DNA of 64,000 nucleotides from a phage. The stretch's first letter is position 1. Every line of letters starts with the position of its first letter. The notes beneath the pieces are model-generated. The model searched no databases. It saw only the letters and a list, made by a program, of their open reading frames with translations, and was not told where the DNA came from. The position numbers and the translations under genes were made by a program. The stretch is from sequence record OZ346228.1. One strand, written 5' to 3'. Shown here piece by piece: positions 49,453 through 59,645 of the stretch.

Positions 49453-49689
49453 TTAATCTTCGTAAATCAGGATTTCTGCTTTAGGTTTTCGTGCTTTCAT
49501 GTCCAGCTCTATCCAGTGCACCATAGCTGTTTCAAGAAAAACAGCCTGGATGCATCCGTCCTCAGCAGCGTGTCCTAGCAGCATAACAAGATCTTCTCCT
49601 TCGTCATCTGCACCACGAACATACAGAATCTCCCCGGGTTCAAAATCTTTAACAACCTGATTGTTGGATAATTTACGAATTTTCGCCAT
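49453..49689 (-). CDS. small paralog family member 4
   Basis: 78 aa; shares K-rich N-terminus, PG[TE]-hydrophobic motif (EPGEILYV) and acidic C-terminus with the three upstream 87-aa genes. Confidence 0.5.
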   Translation of the reverse strand: MAKIRKLSNNQVVKDFEPGEILYVRGADDEGEDLVMLLGHAAEDGCIQAVFLETAMVHWIELDMKARKPKAEILIYED

Positions 49690-49690
49690 A

Positions 49691-49954
49691 TTAGAAACCC
49701 TCTAAAAAGCTCTTGTAGAAAATAATTTCAGTATCTACACCAGTCACGATCTTATCGTTCCTGATTTCATCTGTAAGGTAGGTGTCAAAACGCAGAACCT
49801 GTGTGGTGTTGTCACACATCCACTCAGCTGTGACCATTGCGAAAATCTTAGCATCTTCATTATCTGGTGTGAATGTTACCACCTCACCGCACTTAAACTT
49901 TTCGATAGGCTGAGTGTTAGCTTTCGGTTCTGCGATAGTGATTTTTGTGGTCAT
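49691..49954 (-). CDS. small paralog family member 3
   Basis: 87 aa; motif KCGEVVTF; tandem with members 1, 2 and 4. Confidence 0.5.
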   Translation of the reverse strand: MTTKITIAEPKANTQPIEKFKCGEVVTFTPDNEDAKIFAMVTAEWMCDNTTQVLRFDTYLTDEIRNDKIVTGVDTEIIFYKSFLEGF

Positions 49955-50217
49955 TATTCTCCTCCTTCTTTTGAATAGCTTGTCTCTCCAAGGATGGTAA
50001 TTTTGGTGTCAAGCTCTGTAACTTTCATGTTTGGCGGCAGATCGTACAACTCATTATTTTCTAAATCGAACCCCCACACACAATGTTCTCCTGTTTTGAC
50101 AATCATAACTATGTTTTGAATGCCGTCTCCGTCGCAACTTACCACAGTCCCACACGGAAAGCTGTCTGCACGCTTTTTGTTCTTCACCTTAGAATTGAAT
50201 ACAATGCTGGTAGCCAT
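49954..50217 (-). CDS. small paralog family member 2
   Basis: 87 aa; motif PCGTVVSC; stop/start overlap with neighbours. Confidence 0.5.
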   Translation of the reverse strand: MATSIVFNSKVKNKKRADSFPCGTVVSCDGDGIQNIVMIVKTGEHCVWGFDLENNELYDLPPNMKVTELDTKITILGETSYSKEGGE

Positions 50218-50480
50218 TATTGTTCCTCCACCATAACTTCGCCAATAATTTCTATGCAGGCATCCATTTCTGTAACAACCAAACTGTGAGGTAGTTCTAC
50301 AAACACCTTTCTGAACAGGTCAAATACCCCAACATATATGTTTGCAGGATGTGATTTTACAACAAGTGCTGTATTCACATCCCCAAGTTCATCAACAAAC
50401 ATCACCACAGTGCCTGGAGCTACTGAGGACAGATACTTCTTAGTTTTACGGTTTGATGCAAATTTTAACTCTGTTGCCAT
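50217..50480 (-). CDS. small paralog family member 1
   Basis: 87 aa; motif APGTVVMFVD; first of four tandem same-length genes directly downstream of the metallopeptidase-VWA gene. Confidence 0.5.
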   Translation of the reverse strand: MATELKFASNRKTKKYLSSVAPGTVVMFVDELGDVNTALVVKSHPANIYVGVFDLFRKVFVELPHSLVVTEMDACIEIIGEVMVEEQ

Positions 50481-50495
50481 AAATAACCTCCTCTC

Positions 50496-51977
50496 TTACT
50501 TAGCGTACTCGATTAATTCCACAGTTTTACCAAAGCTCGGGATATAATTTTTATTATACCCCTCAGTGAGGACCCATAGAGTATCGTACTTTTTCCACTT
50601 GTTGTCAACAACCTTTTGTTCAAAGTTATGCTCAAAGTATAGGTCGGTCAGGACGATGACATCTTTTGCATTAGGTATGTTGGCATCCAGATACTCGAAC
50701 ACGCAAGCAGCTGTTGTGCCCCATGTTGAGTGGACCTCATAGTTGATCATCTCGTCTATGTTGCCGCGAGTGTATACTTTAACCTCTCCAACCTCAGTTG
50801 ACCAACAGAACATTGTAACCTTAAACTCTTTATACAGATTGCACAATCCGGTGATTTCATTGAACATTTTCTTTAAAGTTCTTTGAGAGATCGAGCCAGA
50901 AACGTCTAAAGCCACCACAATATCTATAGTGTTTTCCGGATTACGACCAGGAACAATAACGTGCTGGTTCTTGTTTATAGCCCCAACTTTTCGCATTGTG
51001 CTGGTCAAAGACCCAGATCGGCGACCAGGTTTTCTGTAGGTCAGTTCGGCCTTTCTTTTAGACAACATACGTTGCTTAATGATGTCTATATAGTTGATTA
51101 CAGGCTTACCTCTGTTCTTGACAAACTCACGCACCGCCTCAGGGCAACGGCCTCCGGACGCTTGCATTGCTGCCTCCAGCATATCACCAGAGTCCTGCAT
51201 GGCCTGATCTTTATCAGATTGGCTGATTACAGGTTGTGGCTGATCATACCCCATAGCCTTTCCAAGATTATCACTGGTGCCACCGTTCCCACTCATGTGA
51301 TCATCGGTTTGTCGCTTATCACTTTGAGAGTTCTCACCTTTACCGTTCTTACTTTTACCGTTATTCTGATCTCTTTGCTTATCAAGAACTGCATAAACGT
51401 TCTCAGCAATCCATCCATGAAACTTCATGTCGCAGTAGCAGCTGGCTAAGAAGCCAAAAGGCTTACCTTTCATGAACGTAGTGCTTTTCCCCTTCGGGAA
51501 GAAAACACAAGGGGGTTTGCTAAAGTCAACCACAAGGCCTGTGTTGATAACGTGATCACAAGCAATATTGAACAGTTCCGGCTCAAAGCTTTTACCACGG
51601 ACTAGGTGATCACAGATAATATGCCCCACCTCATGTGACAGAAGGAAGGCCACCTCTTTCACAGATTTTGGGGAATAGAAAACTTCAGCCATCTCAAACT
51701 GCTCGTCAGTTAGAGAAGCCTTAAGAATAGCCTTGCGCTCATCAGCCAATCCCATAATGAACTCAGGACTGTAATAGATGCGTTTATGGTCGGTTGCCAT
51801 GGTGGAGCACCATGTGTGGTTTTCTACGAACTGCAACCCTGACAGTAGTGTGCCATAAAACGGCAGCTTTTCAAGGAGATACATACGTGCAGCCTGCAAC
51901 ATTCTCAGGGCATCATCTTTCTGCGAGGCAATGATTTCTGAACTTCTGCTATCCATTAAAACTCCAGAAGGGGCCAT
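50496..51977 (-). CDS. putative zinc metallopeptidase domain + von Willebrand factor A (VWA) domain protein
   Basis: 493 aa; HExxH motif (HEVGHIICDH) in N-terminal half, Gly/Ser/Asp-rich linker, C-terminal MIDAS-like motif DIVVALDVSGS. Confidence 0.7.
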   Translation of the reverse strand: MAPSGVLMDSRSSEIIASQKDDALRMLQAARMYLLEKLPFYGTLLSGLQFVENHTWCSTMATDHKRIYYSPEFIMGLADERKAILKASLTDEQFEMAEVFYSPKSVKEVAFLLSHEVGHIICDHLVRGKSFEPELFNIACDHVINTGLVVDFSKPPCVFFPKGKSTTFMKGKPFGFLASCYCDMKFHGWIAENVYAVLDKQRDQNNGKSKNGKGENSQSDKRQTDDHMSGNGGTSDNLGKAMGYDQPQPVISQSDKDQAMQDSGDMLEAAMQASGGRCPEAVREFVKNRGKPVINYIDIIKQRMLSKRKAELTYRKPGRRSGSLTSTMRKVGAINKNQHVIVPGRNPENTIDIVVALDVSGSISQRTLKKMFNEITGLCNLYKEFKVTMFCWSTEVGEVKVYTRGNIDEMINYEVHSTWGTTAACVFEYLDANIPNAKDVIVLTDLYFEHNFEQKVVDNKWKKYDTLWVLTEGYNKNYIPSFGKTVELIEYAK

Positions 51978-51989
51978 CGGCCCCTGTCA

Positions 51990-53030
51990 TTATTTAACGT
52001 GTTTGAAAATACCTGCCAACTCGGTCATTGTCATGCGGGTGGTCTTCATAAGATCTGTCATAGCTTTCTCCATAATTGGAGATACTACCATAAAGTTTCC
52101 TTTAGTGAAACCTTTATTCCAGTCGGTCACCAACAGGGGTTTAAGTCCAGCTCCAAGACGTTCACCAGTTAAAGCACAGCATTTGCGAATATACGAACTC
52201 TTAAATTGGCTGAACGACAGATCAACTTTCATACCTACATCGTAGAACGTTTGACAATAGAAAGTGTAAGCTTTGGCAATCTCAACATCATCAGGTAGTG
52301 CAGGAACCTCTTCTGTAAGCTCCTCTTCGACCTCCTGAGTCTCTTTTTCCTCTTCATGCACCTGTTGCGTCATTTCTTCAATCTCTTCTGTGATAGGCTC
52401 GTTTACAATGTCGGAAATGTGCTTCTTGGGTGCACGATAAGTAACTTTAGACATCGGTAGCATATCTTCCTCCTCTTCTTCGTCAAAGAGTGCTAGTTTA
52501 TCCTCTTCCGTTCCATATTGCAAGATGAAATCTTCAAAAGTATAATCACCTTTCAATTTCTCCATACGCTCTTCGCTCAGGTGGAGCATCATCTGCTGGA
52601 CAATTTTTCGATCAGTTTCGTCTTTAATCAAGACTGCAGTCTTTTTATCTACCAGACAGTCCTTTAGAGAGTTGCATCTCAATCCCACCACACAACAGTT
52701 ATCAACCGCATAAGGACCTTCATCATCTATCCGCTCCAGAGATGGGTAGAAAGGATTCCCCAGCCCGTTTTCATCTGTGTGCATGTCAAAAGGTATAAGG
52801 GTATAGTCGCATACTCCATCTCCTAAAAGTTTTTTACCAAATAGGAGGTATTCTTCCCATGACAGGTCGAACTCTATATCTCGTTTCCGTGCGTTATTCT
52901 GTTTGCGTCTATATTTTTTGAGCAAGCGCTCTAACTCTTCTGGTGTATAATATTTTTCAAGATTCATGAGTCGTCTCTCGTGCTCTGTAAGTGAAGAAAT
53001 CGTATCAATTGTCTCAACAGATGTCAACAT
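51990..53030 (-). CDS. tandem His-Me-finger (HNH-like) endonuclease-domain protein
   Basis: ATG at 53030 (track starts at TTG 53033); first domain C.Y..PSLERIDDEGPYAVDNCCVVGLRCNSLK; degenerate second copy ALTGERL..LLVTDWNKGFTKGNFMVV; acidic linker between. Confidence 0.45.
   Translation of the reverse strand: MLTSVETIDTISSLTEHERRLMNLEKYYTPEELERLLKKYRRKQNNARKRDIEFDLSWEEYLLFGKKLLGDGVCDYTLIPFDMHTDENGLGNPFYPSLERIDDEGPYAVDNCCVVGLRCNSLKDCLVDKKTAVLIKDETDRKIVQQMMLHLSEERMEKLKGDYTFEDFILQYGTEEDKLALFDEEEEEDMLPMSKVTYRAPKKHISDIVNEPITEEIEEMTQQVHEEEKETQEVEEELTEEVPALPDDVEIAKAYTFYCQTFYDVGMKVDLSFSQFKSSYIRKCCALTGERLGAGLKPLLVTDWNKGFTKGNFMVVSPIMEKAMTDLMKTTRMTMTELAGIFKHVK
52431..52459. repeat. 29-bp inverted repeat, left copy (reverse complement of TACCGATGTCTAAAGTTACTTATCGTGCA)
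   Basis: Reverse complement of 52431..52459 matches 54293..54321 exactly; lies in linker of tandem-HNH-like gene. Confidence 0.85.
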
Positions 53031-53040
53031 CAAAAACGTG

Positions 53041-53069
53041 TTGACTTTACTCTAACTCCACAATATAGT
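53041..53069 (+). promoter_or_regulatory. sigma70-like promoter for + early operon
   Basis: TTGACT, 17-nt spacer, TATAGT; in divergent region between 53030 (-) and 53110 (+) gene starts. Confidence 0.5.
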
Positions 53070-53109
53070 GCACCCATTCGAAAGAAAACTAACATAGGAG
53101 CACTTACTT

Positions 53110-54009
53110 ATGGCAAATCTTAACAGTTTTAGTACGCGGTGGAAACAGGACATAACAACCAATCTTTCAGCTGGGGACATCCTTTCTGCAATTTACGAGG
53201 CTTTAGATGATAAAGCTACTTCAAAAGCGGTTTGTACCAACCCATTAATTCCTATAGTGATGAAGGTTATTGAGCGTAGATTGGTATCTGGGTCTGATAA
53301 GTGGACATATTTAGATAATGAAGGACACACCTATTCCAATGGGTATGTCGATATAAAAGTAGAATACGCGGTATCATACCGCCGGAGCGGTTCTGTAACT
53401 TTCAACTTCTCTGGAGGTTTTCGATCTCTGGCTACCTCACCTTTTGTTTCCTCAGAGGAGAAGTATGAGCTGCCATTTCTTTGGATGATGGCTAACGCGA
53501 CAGGAAAAACCCCCGTTAGCATCCGAGTAAAATACAACTACAACGGATCTAGTAAGATCTATGCCGAAAGTGTCTCAGCAAGTTTTTATTTTGTGATGGG
53601 GGATGGAATCCTCAAACATATAAAGATGTGCGATATGCATGATGTTATAAATGAAGTGACTGATAAGAATGTTCTAGTGAAAGACCTCAACAATTTTTAT
53701 ACACCTGGAGACTATTACGTCAGCCGTCCACTGTGCATCTTTAATGCCGCACACCCTCTAGGTGAGTATTTGATCGCCAATAGCGATATTGCCAATAACC
53801 GCTTCGAGGTAGCAAGAGTTCAGAATGAGGTATTGACATCTTGCAAGAGCGGTGATAAGTTTACCGAAGAAGAGATGGGTGTTTTAGAAATGATGGGATA
53901 TAAGTGTAGCCTTTGGGTAGATGAGGTGTTTAATGATTGCATCTATGGACAGGATATTTACCCATTAAAGAAGTATACTGATACAAGTTTAATTTATGCG
54001 AGGGTTTGA
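53110..54009 (+). CDS. hypothetical early protein
   Basis: 299 aa; first gene after divergent promoter TTGACT-17-TATAGT; RBS AGGAG. Confidence 0.45.
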   Translation: MANLNSFSTRWKQDITTNLSAGDILSAIYEALDDKATSKAVCTNPLIPIVMKVIERRLVSGSDKWTYLDNEGHTYSNGYVDIKVEYAVSYRRSGSVTFNFSGGFRSLATSPFVSSEEKYELPFLWMMANATGKTPVSIRVKYNYNGSSKIYAESVSASFYFVMGDGILKHIKMCDMHDVINEVTDKNVLVKDLNNFYTPGDYYVSRPLCIFNAAHPLGEYLIANSDIANNRFEVARVQNEVLTSCKSGDKFTEEEMGVLEMMGYKCSLWVDEVFNDCIYGQDIYPLKKYTDTSLIYARV

Positions 54010-54011
54010 CT

Positions 54012-54284
54012 ATGATGAAGGCATGTGGTAATGTATATTACGTCGGTGAACATGTTCAGGCAGACAGTGTGTGGAAATCTATTAAGTCCACCACTGACGA
54101 TGCCCTTCTGAGTGGACTATGTTTCCCCAATCCGGGAGACATCCTCCCTCATCCTGGAGATTTTGTTGTCAACAAGATGGACGGTTATACCGTGTGCCTG
54201 ATGGTTGAAAAAATCTTTTTAGACACTAGACACAATCACCGTCTTGTGTTAAAATTTCAAGAATGTAAAATGACAATTGCCTAA
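54012..54284 (+). CDS. small hypothetical protein
   Basis: ATG at 54012 (track start TTG 54006 overlaps upstream stop). Confidence 0.4.
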   Translation: MMKACGNVYYVGEHVQADSVWKSIKSTTDDALLSGLCFPNPGDILPHPGDFVVNKMDGYTVCLMVEKIFLDTRHNHRLVLKFQECKMTIA

Positions 54285-54292
54285 GGAGACCT

Positions 54293-54321
54293 TACCGATG
54301 TCTAAAGTTACTTATCGTGCA
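54293..54321. repeat. 29-bp inverted repeat, right copy (TACCGATGTCTAAAGTTACTTATCGTGCA)
   Basis: Contains ATG start of 54298 gene; exact inverted match to 52431..52459. Confidence 0.85.
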
Positions 54322-54654
54322 GCTATTTACTGCAATGAACACCCAATCAATAATGATGGTCACTGCCTTTTTAAAGAAAATCAATTGGGCTGTATTGTCC
54401 TCCCTGATGAAGGGGAAGGTTATCTGATTGCATTGACAGGGTTTGAACCTGAGGCTCTGGAAGCCAATCTGGACTACCTGGTAGAAGAGGGTGCTGCAGA
54501 CCTGGTTGCCAATGGCCTCTCCATAAGCCTTGACGAAGTAGAGCGCTTCATGGGCAATTACCGTGTAGTGCGTGAGTTTACTATCGAGGTGGAAACTCCC
54601 GAGTGGAGTAGCCATGAAACTAATGCCGAAGAAAAAGAAGAGGAGGTAGAATAA
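54298..54654 (+). CDS. hypothetical acidic protein
   Basis: ATG 54298 after RBS AAGGAG; N-terminal codons MSKVTYRA lie inside the 29-bp inverted repeat. Confidence 0.45.
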   Translation: MSKVTYRAAIYCNEHPINNDGHCLFKENQLGCIVLPDEGEGYLIALTGFEPEALEANLDYLVEEGAADLVANGLSISLDEVERFMGNYRVVREFTIEVETPEWSSHETNAEEKEEEVE

Positions 54655-54911
54655 TGAAAGTGCAGATCTTGACTAATGCCGAGAAGATGTTTATTGAAGA
54701 TACACCTTTTGAAGCTGGTGAGCTACAGTTCGTTTATTTTGTTGACTTAGATAAGGTGTTTCCTGCACTGAATCTAGGTTTGGATGAAGTTCCTCATAAG
54801 GTTTTGTGCCAAGTTGTTCGTGCCTTAGCGGCAGAGGGGGAGTTCCACACCCTTCAAGATGTCCAGACCTACGGGTATCTTGAACTACAACGAGAAGAAG
54901 AGGTGGACTGA
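54654..54911 (+). CDS. small hypothetical protein
   Basis: 85 aa; start overlaps upstream stop. Confidence 0.4.
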   Translation: MKVQILTNAEKMFIEDTPFEAGELQFVYFVDLDKVFPALNLGLDEVPHKVLCQVVRALAAEGEFHTLQDVQTYGYLELQREEEVD

Positions 54912-54913
54912 TA

Positions 54914-55294
54914 ATGGCTCAGTGGAAGACGACAGTTGACCTTCATGATCAGTGGTTAGGACGCATCACTGAAGACGGGAAGCTAGTGGAGTGGGACAAT
55001 AAGCATGTTAGCGAGTTGGCAAGTATTGTGGCTGGCAAGTTACGCTCCAAGTTCCCTGAACAACTGGATCCTGATAGTTCAAAGTTCGATCCTGAGTTGG
55101 AGGATGTTGTATACTACTTCGATACCGTGGATGACTACGATGCGTGGTTTGCAGCACGGGAGCTTTACCCACAAGGCTCTGCTATGCGCCAGATGGAAGA
55201 AGATTATCCTCCGTGTGAGCAATTCAATAGTGCAATGACTTGCCTCTATGATTGGGCAGATAAGAACCTTGTCTGGATTCGGACTGCATTTTAG
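54914..55294 (+). CDS. hypothetical protein
   Basis: 126-aa ORF in tightly packed + operon. Confidence 0.4.
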   Translation: MAQWKTTVDLHDQWLGRITEDGKLVEWDNKHVSELASIVAGKLRSKFPEQLDPDSSKFDPELEDVVYYFDTVDDYDAWFAARELYPQGSAMRQMEEDYPPCEQFNSAMTCLYDWADKNLVWIRTAF

Positions 55295-55338
55295 TGGGCA
55301 GGAATGGCGGCAAGGATGCCGCTTAAGGAGTAGTAGAG

Positions 55339-55608
55339 ATGTTATACCAGCAATATGAACTTCGTGCAGAAAAAGAGTTAAATTTTGACAAAGATATTCA
55401 CAGATATTATTATGGGAAAGTTAGAGGGCAAGCAAGAAAGTGTACTCCAACACTCTTTTATGCCAGCAGACGACTAGCGCCAGAAGAGGCAACAGCAGAA
55501 AGGGTTGCGTACAACTGGAGAGTCACGTATGATATTGACAGATTCGATGTGATATCTGTTTTGGAAAACTTTGAAAACACTTACACACAAGTAGAGGACT
55601 TTTACTAA
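55339..55608 (+). CDS. small hypothetical protein
   Basis: 89 aa; RBS AAGGAG. Confidence 0.4.
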   Translation: MLYQQYELRAEKELNFDKDIHRYYYGKVRGQARKCTPTLFYASRRLAPEEATAERVAYNWRVTYDIDRFDVISVLENFENTYTQVEDFY

Positions 55609-56792
55609 TGTCAAGAAACGTATTCGAAAGTGGTCAAATCACTGTCCGTGAGTTGCCAGCTATTATTCAGTTTGCCCAACGTCATAGCCGATCTGTCCTA
55701 ATTTTGGGACCAATGGGTGTGGGTAAAAGCCAGGTGATGAAGCAGATCGCTGATAATATGTTCGGTGAGCGAGATGACAACCTTGTTGACGTGCGACTGT
55801 CAGATAAAGATCCTGCCGACTTATCTGGGCTACCTATCCCTGTAGAAGCGGATGGAACTACACGTACAGTGTTTGCAATTCCAGAATTTTGGCCTGCGGA
55901 TCCTGACTGGAGCGGAATTATCTTTCTGGATGAGCTCACTCATGCAGATAACTACCTGCAAAAGGTTGCAATGCAAATTATGCTTGACCACAAGTGCGGC
56001 ACCTATGCATTCCCTAAGGGTTCTGTTTTTGTGGCTGCGGGTAACCGTTCTACAGATGGTGCGGTTCTTTCGGCGCTCGAAGCCCCTCTGGCTAACCGTT
56101 TTATCATTGTAGAGGTTACAAGCAATGCAGAGGTGTTTATTGAGGACTACGCATTCCTCAACGGGGTTCACTCCTCTGTAATTGGGTATCTGAAAAGAGT
56201 TCCATCAGCTATTGATAATTATGAGGCTATGGCTGAGATTAATTGTCCATCTTTTGCCACACCACGATCTTGGGTTGCTGCATCTGACATCTTGCACGAT
56301 TTTGACAGCGGTATTATTTCTGACGCTATGGCCCGTGTTCTTCTGCAAGGTGCTATTGGTCACACTGCAGCGGTAGAGATCTGGACATACCACACCAAGA
56401 AACGCAATTTACCGGAAATCGGTCGGATTATGGCAGGTGGCTGCAAAGAATACGTAGGCCCTAAGCAGCCAGACATTTTGTGGATTCTTGGATCTGAAGG
56501 TTGTATCGCTATTCGTAATATGATGGAAAATGCAAGTATCTCAGACGAAGATCTTGTCAGCTGTGTGGCAAACTTCCTCGATTTCCTTTGGGAAAACTTC
56601 AAGGACGAGAACCGAGATTTTGTATTCTCAGTCTTTATGGCGATGATGAAACCTAATGCCTTAGGAAATGCCTTGCTTATCGGTAAAGGGCGTGACAAGA
56701 TTGTTGCTCAGCTGATCAAAGCATACCCAAACCTGATGAAGATTGTAAAAGAGTTTGGTGAAGAGTTTAGCGCCATTTTGGCTAAAGCTTAA
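55608..56792 (+). CDS. MoxR-like AAA+ ATPase
   Basis: 394 aa; Walker A GPMGVGKS, Walker B IIFLDELTHAD, sensor-like AAGNRS; MoxR/CbbQ-type architecture. Confidence 0.7.
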   Translation: MSRNVFESGQITVRELPAIIQFAQRHSRSVLILGPMGVGKSQVMKQIADNMFGERDDNLVDVRLSDKDPADLSGLPIPVEADGTTRTVFAIPEFWPADPDWSGIIFLDELTHADNYLQKVAMQIMLDHKCGTYAFPKGSVFVAAGNRSTDGAVLSALEAPLANRFIIVEVTSNAEVFIEDYAFLNGVHSSVIGYLKRVPSAIDNYEAMAEINCPSFATPRSWVAASDILHDFDSGIISDAMARVLLQGAIGHTAAVEIWTYHTKKRNLPEIGRIMAGGCKEYVGPKQPDILWILGSEGCIAIRNMMENASISDEDLVSCVANFLDFLWENFKDENRDFVFSVFMAMMKPNALGNALLIGKGRDKIVAQLIKAYPNLMKIVKEFGEEFSAILAKA

Positions 56793-56802
56793 GGGGGGTT
56801 GT

Positions 56803-57183
56803 ATGGCTAAAGTAGGTAAGCGGGGAAACTACCTGGTGGTATTGACCGAGGAGCCGGAGAAGGAGTACGAATGCAGCTCCACTTGCGTGATCGATATCCG
56901 AGAAAAAGATGTAGATGAAATCTGGTTTAAAATATTGGACGCTTGCGATAGCAGTGATTATTTCTTCATTTATGTCAACGATAAGGCTGGATTCTTCCAT
57001 GACGACGGAGAGTTGCCGTATGAAATCTATGAACTTGTAGAGGCTTGCCATCGTGGAGATGCGGAGTTGTTTGGCCTACGGCTGAAAAGCGGTAAATTCT
57101 TCTATCAAGATGAGTGCATGAATCTTCATAACTTTGTAGAGGGAACTTGCAACGATGGAGAGATTTTGGCACACTACGATTAA
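56803..57183 (+). CDS. hypothetical Cys-containing protein
   Basis: ATG 56803 after RBS AAGGGGGG; followed by terminator. Confidence 0.4.
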   Translation: MAKVGKRGNYLVVLTEEPEKEYECSSTCVIDIREKDVDEIWFKILDACDSSDYFFIYVNDKAGFFHDDGELPYEIYELVEACHRGDAELFGLRLKSGKFFYQDECMNLHNFVEGTCNDGEILAHYD

Positions 57184-57196
57184 TTTCTAAGACCTC

Positions 57197-57223
57197 CCCC
57201 GCTTCGGCGGGGATTTTCTATTT
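57197..57223 (+). terminator. rho-independent terminator
   Basis: CCCCCGC-TTCG-GCGGGG then TTTTCTATTT. Confidence 0.65.
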
Positions 57224-57232
57224 GGAGTCATT

Positions 57233-57733
57233 GTGAAAATTAAGATCTTTGCTATTATTTTGAGCGCACTTTTATCGCTGCCTGTTGTTGCAGCACCAAA
57301 ACAAAAAGTATATCATACTTGCAAGCCCTCAGATACTAAGGAAAACATTCTGGCATGCAATATCTACAGGGAGGCTAGAGGGGATGGCACGATGGGTATG
57401 CTGGCATCAGGGTTTGCCACACTAAACAGGAAATCTCACCCCAAATACCCAGACACTATAAGAAAGATTGTCTACCAACCTAACCAGTTTTCGTGGACAA
57501 ACCACGGCAAAACTTTTAAGGTGACAGAAAAAGATTCATGGGATCACGCTAAAAGTCTTGCAAAGATGCTTCTAAAGGTCTATAATAACAACCATGTTGC
57601 ATACATGGCTATGGACATAACAGGTGGAGCAACACACTACCATACAACCAAAGTACGACCGAAATGGGCAAAAAAGATGCAGAGGACAGCTCAATTCGGG
57701 AGTCATATCTACTACAAGGAGCGCAATAAATGA
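57233..57733 (+). CDS. SleB/CwlJ-family cell wall hydrolase with signal peptide (candidate endolysin)
   Basis: 166 aa, GTG start; N-terminal signal-like MKIKIFAIILSALLSLPVVAAP; motifs NIYREARGDG, LNRKSHPKYPDTIRKIVYQPNQFSW. Confidence 0.7.
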   Translation: MKIKIFAIILSALLSLPVVAAPKQKVYHTCKPSDTKENILACNIYREARGDGTMGMLASGFATLNRKSHPKYPDTIRKIVYQPNQFSWTNHGKTFKVTEKDSWDHAKSLAKMLLKVYNNNHVAYMAMDITGGATHYHTTKVRPKWAKKMQRTAQFGSHIYYKERNK

Positions 57734-58275
57734 TTGTAAACAGTAATGAAACTAAAGCAGTACTAACCGGAAATATGGAGGTCACCAGGGGCTCAATTTC
57801 TCTGAACAAAGAGACTTTTGGGCTAATCATTAAAGGGATTTACGAAGATAAGGTGCTGGCAAGCTGCCGTGAACCAATCTTCAATGCTGTGGACTCCCAT
57901 GTTGAGTCTGGACGGGGTGATGTACCGATCATCATTCACTCTCCTACAGACCTTGAACCATACTTCTTTGTGCAGGACGTTGGATTGGGCATGTCGGAAG
58001 AGATGGTCCGCAACACTTTCATGAACCTCGGGGAGTCAACCAAGCGCAACAGCAACGCTCTGGTAGGTAATAAAGGTGTAGGTTCAAAGGCCCCGTTCAG
58101 CATGGTGGACACTTTCGATGTGATCAGTGTGCCATACCAACACAACAGTGCTAAGTGCCGTGCATGCCGCTACGAAATAGTAGCAGCACCGGAATCACGC
58201 AAAGATGGCGATCCGATTGAATACGTAGTTGACCGTGATGGTAACATCATCGACATTATCTACGAGGAGGCGTAA
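57730..58275 (+). CDS. GHKL-type ATPase-like domain protein (putative)
   Basis: 181 aa; Bergerat-fold-like motifs EPIFNAVD (N box), DVGLGM (G1 box), GNKGVGSKA (G2 box). Confidence 0.4.
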   Translation: MIVNSNETKAVLTGNMEVTRGSISLNKETFGLIIKGIYEDKVLASCREPIFNAVDSHVESGRGDVPIIIHSPTDLEPYFFVQDVGLGMSEEMVRNTFMNLGESTKRNSNALVGNKGVGSKAPFSMVDTFDVISVPYQHNSAKCRACRYEIVAAPESRKDGDPIEYVVDRDGNIIDIIYEEA

Positions 58276-59645
58276 TGGAAAAAGGGCAGTATGACGTAGG
58301 CACAGATGCTGCCCTCATTGCAATCATGAGTGGTGAGAATGTCTTCGTTTCAGGACCTGCAGGTTGTGGGAAGACGTATCTCATCAACATGATCCAGTCA
58401 ATGTATGGAGACTCTTGCATAACGGTTGCCCCGACAGGGGTAGCCGCTTTAAACGTTAATGGAGCAACAGCACACCGAACATTCGATCTTGCAGCAGGTG
58501 TGAGCATGGAGTCGGACTGGACCGCAATAAGGGCAAAAACAGCAAAGCCTTTGAAAAGCAAGGCATTTACCATCCTAATTATCGATGAAATCTCTATGAT
58601 CCGTGCTGATAAGTTTATAGAGATGGATAGGAAACTCCGCTTCCTTCGAAAAAATGACAAACCTTTCGGAGGCATACAGGTCATATTGTTTGGCGATTTT
58701 TACCAGGCACCTCCTGTTGTCTCTTCTATGGAGAAGGAAGCCTACTTCAACTTCTACCATACGGACCTGTGTTGCTACACCGAATCTTGGAAAGAGCTTG
58801 ACCTCCACAACATAGCCCTAATAGATCAGTTCCGACAGGAGTCTATTCGATTTGCCACAATGCTTAACTGTGTTCGTGAGGGTCGTCGCATAAAAGAGGT
58901 TGTAGCAGAACTTAATGCTCGCTGTTACAAAGGTGGTGTACCAACAGATGCTCTCACAATTTGCGCCACCAACAAACAAGCAGAGGAAGTAAACAGAAGG
59001 TTCTATGATGCCATCAACGCCCCAGAGAAGGTATACACTGGTGAAATGAAGGGTAAGTTTCCCTCCACCCTGCCAGTTGAGCAGGAGATGAAGTTGAAAA
59101 TTGGCATGAAAGTTATGATAACCGCCAACGATGTTGACCCGACGCACAAAGTACCTTATTATGTTAACGGAACACGTGCCACAATTGTTAAATTTAAGAA
59201 CAAGGCGGTGGTGGTAGAGCTTGAAGATGGAACACAGGTTGACATAGAGCAGAGGTTGTGGGAGAATAACGAGTATAAGCCCTCTCAGAGATACAACATT
59301 GCAGAAAGGAAGATGGAGAAGTTTATAGAGAGGGTAGTGATTGGGTCATACAAGCAACTTCCTCTGAAATCTGGGTACGCCGTAACATCTCATAAAAGTC
59401 AAGGACTTACGCTAGATTGTTACAACCTAGACCTTGGAAAGAACGGAGCTTTCTCTCCTGGGATGACGTATGTCGCTTTGAGTAGAGTTAAGACAATACA
59501 AGGAATAAACTTGTTGCGTCCCCTAAGAGAAGTTGACATTATTGTTGACCCGCGAGTAGTAGAGTTTTACAATACAACATTCCCTGACTTAGACAAAATT
59601 GTCAGGAAAGATTTTGAAACCAGAGCAGAAGAGGGGGACGTATGA
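58275..59645 (+). CDS. PIF1/RecD-like DNA helicase
   Basis: 456 aa; Walker A GPAGCGKT, Walker B LIIDEISM, C-terminal helicase motifs VTSHKSQGLT and YVALSRV. Confidence 0.8.
   Translation: MEKGQYDVGTDAALIAIMSGENVFVSGPAGCGKTYLINMIQSMYGDSCITVAPTGVAALNVNGATAHRTFDLAAGVSMESDWTAIRAKTAKPLKSKAFTILIIDEISMIRADKFIEMDRKLRFLRKNDKPFGGIQVILFGDFYQAPPVVSSMEKEAYFNFYHTDLCCYTESWKELDLHNIALIDQFRQESIRFATMLNCVREGRRIKEVVAELNARCYKGGVPTDALTICATNKQAEEVNRRFYDAINAPEKVYTGEMKGKFPSTLPVEQEMKLKIGMKVMITANDVDPTHKVPYYVNGTRATIVKFKNKAVVVELEDGTQVDIEQRLWENNEYKPSQRYNIAERKMEKFIERVVIGSYKQLPLKSGYAVTSHKSQGLTLDCYNLDLGKNGAFSPGMTYVALSRVKTIQGINLLRPLREVDIIVDPRVVEFYNTTFPDLDKIVRKDFETRAEEGDV

Follow-up and report, generated by a model that had tools for sequence, protein, structure and literature searches.

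An ORF on the plus strand of a phage genome (55608..56792) raises the question of what a MoxR-like AAA+ ATPase does for a phage, and whether it works with a VWA-peptidase encoded on the opposite strand. The window analyzed here is a stretch of 64,000 nucleotides from the sequence record OZ346228.1, which matched Escherichia phage naswa and about 120 other rV5-like phages (Vequintavirinae, genus Vequintavirus), with 100% identity over 50000–58000. The original prediction, made from the letters of this window, described a MoxR/CbbQ-type ATPase that closes an early operon behind six small genes, is transcribed away from a presumed VWA partner, and is expressed at a different time or from a separate promoter. 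The MoxR ATPase annotation in rV5 and many other records, the phage pair (2021), and the phenotype of an identical protein were already known; what is added here is a count of the ancestral adjacency of the two genes, the placement of their split within Vequintavirinae, a corrected operon end, a candidate internal promoter, and the co-depletion of the partner in the isolate CFE311.

ORF 55608..56792 encodes a divergent MoxR-class ATPase

The ORF and the Walker A, Walker B, and AAGNRS motifs quoted for it were present as described. Its ATG overlaps the stop codon of an upstream 89-aa ORF by one base (TAATG) and is preceded by a GAGGA Shine-Dalgarno sequence. Because homologues were found from an E value of 1e-262 onward, with more than 5,700 proteins at E < 1e-3, it is a real gene and no chance ORF; the product is identical over 394/394 residues to bas54_0063 of Escherichia phage MaxBurger (Bas54), which lies at the same syntenic position. 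The features of the gene and its product are the following.

55608..56792, plus strand: MoxR-class AAA+ ATPase gene, 394 aa, based on the ORF, its motifs, and motif invariance
Residues 34–41: Walker A, GPMGVGKS
Residues 104–114: Walker B, IIFLDELTHAD, with the core at 104–109 and D108/E109
Residues 143–148: sensor 1, AAGNRS, with N146
R164: arginine finger, in LANRF
R220: sensor 2, in ATPRSW
Residues about 75–90: helix-2-insert hairpin, strands 75–81/84–90 in the AlphaFold model
Residues about 129–134: pre-sensor-1 hairpin, strands 129–130/133–134 in the AlphaFold model
Residues about 270–394: extra C-terminal helical region

The five AAA+ motifs occur in the canonical order, and the residues of Walker A, Walker B, sensor 1, the arginine finger, and sensor 2 were invariant in a 38-sequence alignment with identities down to 29%. 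The MoxR label could not be read from a simple domain search, because the single sequence stayed under every Pfam AAA gathering threshold: the best match was AAA_14 (20.7 bits vs. a cutoff of 27), AAA_5 (PF07728) scored 16.7 bits vs. a cutoff of 22, and no AAA_3 (PF07726) match was obtained. Single-sequence searches of NCBIfam and PDB returned sub-threshold P-loops only (ClpB/ClpC, p97); the Clp-type ATPase at which these P-loop matches hinted was ruled out by profile and fold searches. With the PADLOC models, nothing significant was found for the ATPase, the VWA-peptidase, or their neighbors.

The class became apparent through the homologues. Those at E about 1e-44 (33–36% local identity over ~85% of the query) matched AAA_3, the family of MoxR itself, as well as AAA_5 and sometimes bpMoxR, and on rescanning, 15 of the 38 alignment members, 29–33% identical to the ATPase over about 85% of its length, matched AAA_5 and AAA_3 with E values down to 2e-9. 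The best PDB match of the alignment profile was the AAA_5 protein midasin (E 7e-10, from Walker A to sensor 1), the top fold matches were CbbQ/NorQ, and the closest solved structures were MoxR proteins. A helix-2-insert hairpin and a pre-sensor-1 hairpin are the two insertions defining AAA+ clade 7. In the AlphaFold model of the ATPase (pLDDT 83), helix 2 is followed by a beta-hairpin and the sensor 1 strand is preceded by a small one, so that both hairpins of clade 7 (MoxR family) are predicted to be present, while the ~120 C-terminal residues of the protein (roughly 270–394) form a helical extension that canonical MoxR proteins do not have. The fold and the motifs are thus established, and the protein is filed as a divergent member of the MoxR class, which reaches the Pfam thresholds only transitively. 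Homologues, profile search, and fold matches therefore bear out the MoxR/CbbQ-type assignment, and the profile search found no different AAA+ clade, though the ATPase itself remains under the AAA_5 cutoff.

The VWA-peptidase and its pairing with the ATPase across phages

The ATPase is indeed transcribed away from the VWA gene, which lies about 3.6 kb off.

50496..51977, minus strand: DUF2201_N zincin-like metallopeptidase fused to a DUF2201 VWA domain, based on Pfam, motifs, and fold

GenBank records put the start of this gene at 51956 (486 aa). The DUF2201_N putative zincin (E 4e-28) and the DUF2201 VWA-like domain (E 6e-11) both exceeded their Pfam cutoffs (PF13203 and PF09967), the HExxH zincin motif is present as H115-E116-x-x-H119 with H124, and the MIDAS site (DxSxS...T...D) is intact, with D358-x-S360-G-S362, G420-T421, and T444-D445. 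The protein is mislabeled in several resources, as "HNH endonuclease" (phrog_1314, CR9 gp127, and KE22), "putative anti-sigma factor" (naswa_84), and "DNA repair ATPase" (GEC_vB_MG). Pfam, motifs, and fold, all of which give zincin plus VWA, ruled out both the HNH endonuclease of the PHROG label and the anti-sigma factor of the naswa label.

Two further observations concern the surroundings of this gene. At 51969–51985, a GC-rich hairpin, AGGGGCCATCGGCCCCT, lies in the gap that separates the Srd-like gene, which ends at 51990, from the annotated VWA-peptidase start (51956); a hairpin at this position could influence read-through or the stability of the VWA-peptidase mRNA. Downstream of the VWA-peptidase, four small minus-strand ORFs (78, 87, 87, and 87 aa; 49453–50480) are tandem paralogues: 49954..50217 shares 38% identity with 50217..50480 (E 1e-11), and a weak similarity (20%, E 1e-4) links 49453..49689 to 49691..49954.

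To survey the pairing, 80 IMG/VR loci with ATPase homologues were scanned by HMMs for both proteins, with the following outcome.

66 loci: DUF2201 gene directly downstream, same strand
2 loci: DUF2201 gene on the same strand, about 0.5 kb further off
2 loci: DUF2201 gene on the opposite strand, 3.6–3.8 kb off (rV5-like loci)
9 loci: contig ends within 400 nt downstream of the ATPase homologue (uninformative)
1 locus: no DUF2201 match within 1,067 nt downstream

Since the zincin-VWA gene was adjacent to and co-directional with the ATPase gene in 66/70 informative viral loci, gene order identifies the DUF2201 protein as the evolutionary partner of the ATPase, and in this evolutionary sense the presumed partnership was upheld. 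The ATPase and the VWA-peptidase were the only genes common to all phage groups sampled, with most loci coming from one syntenic phage group. A tblastn search placed the ATPase family in at least 786 phage records, among them those of cyanophages and RaK2-like jumbo phages. The adjacent cassette was also found in the chromosome of Sulfurivermis fontis, in N4-like phages (gp24/gp25, both among the 14 core genes of these phages), and in Certrevirus CR9, itself a member of Vequintavirinae; Seunavirus KE22 has the split layout, as does Vequintavirus. From adjacency in other phages, in a chromosome, and in CR9, it follows that the two-gene adjacent operon is ancestral, and that the divergent split is derived inside Vequintavirinae, after Certrevirus branched off. 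Both genes are retained across the subfamily, with invariant catalytic and MIDAS residues.

Operon layout and transcription signals

The transcription signals and genes around the ATPase are listed below.

52968..53109: control region from which the Srd-like gene (minus strand) and the first plus-strand gene diverge
53041–53069, plus strand: sigma70-like promoter, TTGACT-17-TATAGT
53027–52999, minus strand: sigma70-like promoter, TTGACA-17-TACGAT
53110..55608, plus strand: six ORFs upstream of the ATPase (299, 92, 125, 85, 126, and 89 aa), no Pfam hits, PHROGs of unknown function
55385..55413, plus strand: near-consensus sigma70-like promoter, TTGACA-17-TATTAT, 11/12 matches, inside the 89-aa ORF
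56803..57183, plus strand: ORF of 126 aa, function unknown, the final gene ahead of the terminator
57197..57212, plus strand: intrinsic terminator, hairpin CCCCGCTTCGGCGGGG followed by ATTTTCTATTT (T-run)

Counting from the control region, the VWA-peptidase is the second gene to the left and the ATPase the seventh to the right. In phage Gotham, PhagePromoter predictions coincide with the two divergent promoters, and bidirectional promoters are placed here in the rV5 paper, in which promoters are predicted only. Because both genes lie downstream of one bidirectional sigma70-like control region, their split gives no ground to expect that ATPase and VWA-peptidase are expressed at different times. 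The -35 boxes of the two promoters form an inverted repeat at 53023–53045 (GTCAACATCAAAAACGTGTTGAC), which could also serve as the operator through which a regulator controls both units; a terminator scan flags this repeat as terminator-like, when it really consists of two divergent -35 boxes.

Six ORFs do precede the ATPase, as predicted, but the first of them, at 299 aa, is not small. The last of the six, the 89-aa ORF (55339..55608, plus strand), is mislabeled "ATPase" (phrog_13164, naswa_91) and contains no ATPase motif. Only five near-consensus sigma70-like sites of this kind occur on the plus strand of the 64 kb; the one within the 89-aa ORF is 195 nt upstream of the ATPase start, and Seunavirus KE22 and Certrevirus CR9 have independent sigma70-like sites about 60 nt ahead of the ATPase. 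On the strength of this near-consensus site and the comparable ones in KE22 and CR9, the ATPase may have its own promoter, possibly at 55385–55413. Separate promoters thus hold in a trivial sense, given the opposite strands and this site.

The claim that the ATPase closes the operon was wrong by one gene, as the 126-aa ORF follows it and the only strong intrinsic terminator lies beyond that ORF; an ARNold terminator is annotated at the homologous site in phage Gotham. After the terminator, plus-strand genes resume with a cell-wall hydrolase, rII, and a helicase. A literature search for expression-timing data on rV5-like phages found none, and for the homologous pair in N4, middle rather than late expression has been reported. 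Early expression is suggested by the host-type promoters together with the gene content.

The rII region of this genome carries a deletion of its own. About 2.6 kb is missing compared with naswa and all other relatives, with the junction at about 58120–58132 and joined at a short microhomology, GATGTGaTcAGTGTGC. The resulting fusion ORF (57730–58275, 181 aa) links RIIA residues 1–134 in frame with RIIB residues 345–401, and it resembles T4 r1589, the classic rIIA-rIIB fusion deletion. None of 120 related phage records spanned this rIIA-rIIB junction.

Requirement for the ATPase against the defense system DS-28

The function of the ATPase can be approached through the identical protein of Bas54, which was covered by a HIDEN-SEQ transposon study (bioRxiv preprint 10.1101/2025.11.20.689424), the supplementary table of which was re-read here. 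On E. coli K-12, bas54_0063 was non-essential, with 60/64 TA sites disrupted. In the uropathogenic isolate CFE311, its mean insertions fell from 148.7 to 0.0 (log2FC -7.23, adjusted p 0), and a clean bas54_0063 deletion phage was specifically sensitive to the cloned two-gene DS-28 from CFE311 (10.1101/2025.11.20.689424). A genetic requirement for the ATPase against DS-28, a two-gene E. coli DefenseFinder family that is small, uncharacterized, and plasmid-associated, is therefore established by published work. Likewise required was bas54_0140 (log2FC -5.48), which encodes a 99-aa product of unknown function and lies outside the window, and 0063 and 0140 were the only anti-DS-28 genes named in the preprint.

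In the supplementary table, the VWA-peptidase orthologue bas54_0055 was also non-essential on K-12 (81/86 sites disrupted) and was depleted in CFE311, from 219.7 to 47.2 (log2FC -2.20, adjusted p 0.009), a depletion absent from the text of the preprint. The upstream orthologues 0057–0062 and the downstream bas54_0064 were undepleted in CFE311, with log2FC of +0.24 to +0.79, indicating that the effect on the ATPase is gene-specific and that the small genes are not co-required. The notion that the upstream genes are functionally tied to the ATPase thus failed, since their Bas54 orthologues were undepleted where the ATPase was indispensable.

In supplementary file 9 of the preprint, the sheet "Data S6: resampling_K-12_vs_CFE303" repeats the command line and the numbers of "Data S7: K-12_vs_CFE311"; because of this duplication, the CFE303 comparison for Bas54 is not actually provided. 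Separately, the helicase directly downstream (58275–59645, plus strand) is the orthologue of bas54_0068, which was dispensable on K-12 and had a log2FC of -6.32 in CFE311; it is another host-specific gene, and is undiscussed in the main text of the preprint.

Proposed mechanism and alternative explanations

On balance, we favor as probable the reading that the protein is a MoxR-class remodeling ATPase with a zincin-VWA protein as its ancestral partner, which in rV5-like phages serves as a non-essential, host-specific counter-defense factor against DS-28. MoxR ATPases characteristically work with a VWA partner, and in NorQ-NorD, the VWA domain reaches into the hexamer pore with a finger, the client is bound at the MIDAS site, and the twisting and stretching of the partner, driven by ATP hydrolysis, remodels the client (PMC13036017, PMC9976466). 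By analogy with NorQ-NorD and CbbQ-CbbO, the phage ATPase would presumably form a hexameric ring on which the VWA domain of the zincin-VWA protein docks, the MIDAS site would grip an acidic residue on its target (either part of DS-28 itself or a protein, from host or phage, that DS-28 senses), ATP hydrolysis would pull on or remodel the captured target, and the fused zincin domain may cleave it. A physical interaction of the two proteins, the identity of the target, and proteolysis are, like the early timing, put forward conditionally.

The published proposal for the same domain pair, made for group 2.2 jumbo phages, is one of virion assembly (PMC7824862), with the pair acting as an assembly or maturation chaperone plus processing protease, in analogy to the MoxR/VWA proteins p618 and p892 of Acidianus two-tailed virus, and the place of the pair among the core genes of N4-like phages would agree with it. 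For the rV5-like phages, such a role fits poorly and is improbable, because both orthologues are dispensable for plaques on K-12 (~94% of TA sites disrupted, with a "non-essential" call), the genes lie outside the structural module, beside Srd-like, rII, and helicase genes and behind sigma70-like promoters, and the requirement is host-specific and maps to a cloned defense system; the middle rather than late expression of the N4 pair also speaks against it. The resemblance to NorQ and CbbQ, enzyme-maturation factors that are the best structural matches, together with the annotation of cyanophage homologues as MoxR-like ATPase, might instead suggest a module for auxiliary metabolism or cofactor insertion, like NorQ/NorD, CobS/CobT, or BchI/BchD, with a host metalloenzyme as its client. 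This is very hard to reconcile with the partner, which has a protease domain and not a client-specific N-domain, with the defense-specific genetic phenotype, and with the lack of any candidate client enzyme linked to the cassette in the phage groups sampled, and we regard it as highly improbable.

A more serious alternative is that the rV5-like ATPase has been functionally independent of the VWA-peptidase since the genes were separated, and counters DS-28 alone or with another adaptor, e.g., bas54_0140, while the VWA-peptidase has a different role. The split divergent layout is confined to Vequintavirus and Seunavirus, the depletion in CFE311 was complete for the ATPase (-7.23) and bas54_0140 (-5.48) but only -2.20 for the VWA-peptidase, and the preprint reported no anti-DS-28 genes other than 0063 and 0140; the weaker partner phenotype, the extra required gene, and the split layout keep this explanation alive. 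However, both genes are kept across the subfamily with invariant catalytic and MIDAS residues, the partner was still significantly depleted when neighboring genes were not, and all characterized MoxR ATPases act with a VWA partner (PMC13036017), so that independence of the ATPase seems rather unlikely, if worth serious attention. Comparably tentative is a broader version of the favored counter-defense reading, according to which the MoxR ATPase and zincin-VWA cassette could be a general ATP-driven phage counter-defense machine, with the rV5 motor partly re-wired to bas54_0140 as a new small adaptor. Such a machine would combine MIDAS capture, AAA+ remodeling, and proteolysis of a host immune protein or its trigger, and, if true, a general role of this kind would explain why cyanophages, jumbo phages, and rV5-like myoviruses all conserve the pair, as do N4-like podoviruses, in which it belongs to the core genes.

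To our knowledge, there is so far no demonstrated case of an AAA+ unfoldase-type motor taking apart a bacterial immune system. The remaining value of the locus is in mechanism, that is, in how an AAA+ motor defeats DS-28, and the leads to follow are the depletion of the VWA-peptidase in the DS-28-carrying isolate and the split layout derived inside Vequintavirinae.

Comparison with known systems

Compared with bas54_0063 and the "MoxR ATPase" of Vequintavirus, no protein difference exists, and this window adds the downstream rIIA-rIIB deletion. The pair of group 2.2 jumbo phages (Iyer et al., 2021; PMC7824862) and gp24/gp25 of N4 belong to the same two families and have the same partner architecture; their genes, however, are adjacent and co-directional, in contrast to the separated genes on opposite strands here, and while virion assembly was proposed for the jumbo phages, the genetics here point to counter-defense.

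NorQ-NorD and CbbQ-CbbO, of the CbbQ/GvpN/NorQ branch of MoxR, are only 16–23% identical to the ATPase. Relative to NorQ and CbbQ, the phage ATPase adds the helical C-terminal region of about 120 residues, and its partner has a zincin protease where NorD and CbbO have N-domains; the client of the phage pair, as proposed, would be neither a metalloenzyme nor Rubisco. Likewise, p618 (MoxR) and p892 (VWA) of Acidianus two-tailed virus form a virus-encoded MoxR plus VWA pair (cited in PMC7824862). This virus is archaeal, p892 is without a peptidase domain, and extracellular tail development is the process in which the two proteins act. Midasin/Rea1 also has AAA_5-type modules working with a MIDAS domain, but it is a giant eukaryotic six-module ATPase of ribosome biogenesis that carries its own MIDAS domain, and its likeness to the phage ATPase is at the level of a single AAA module.
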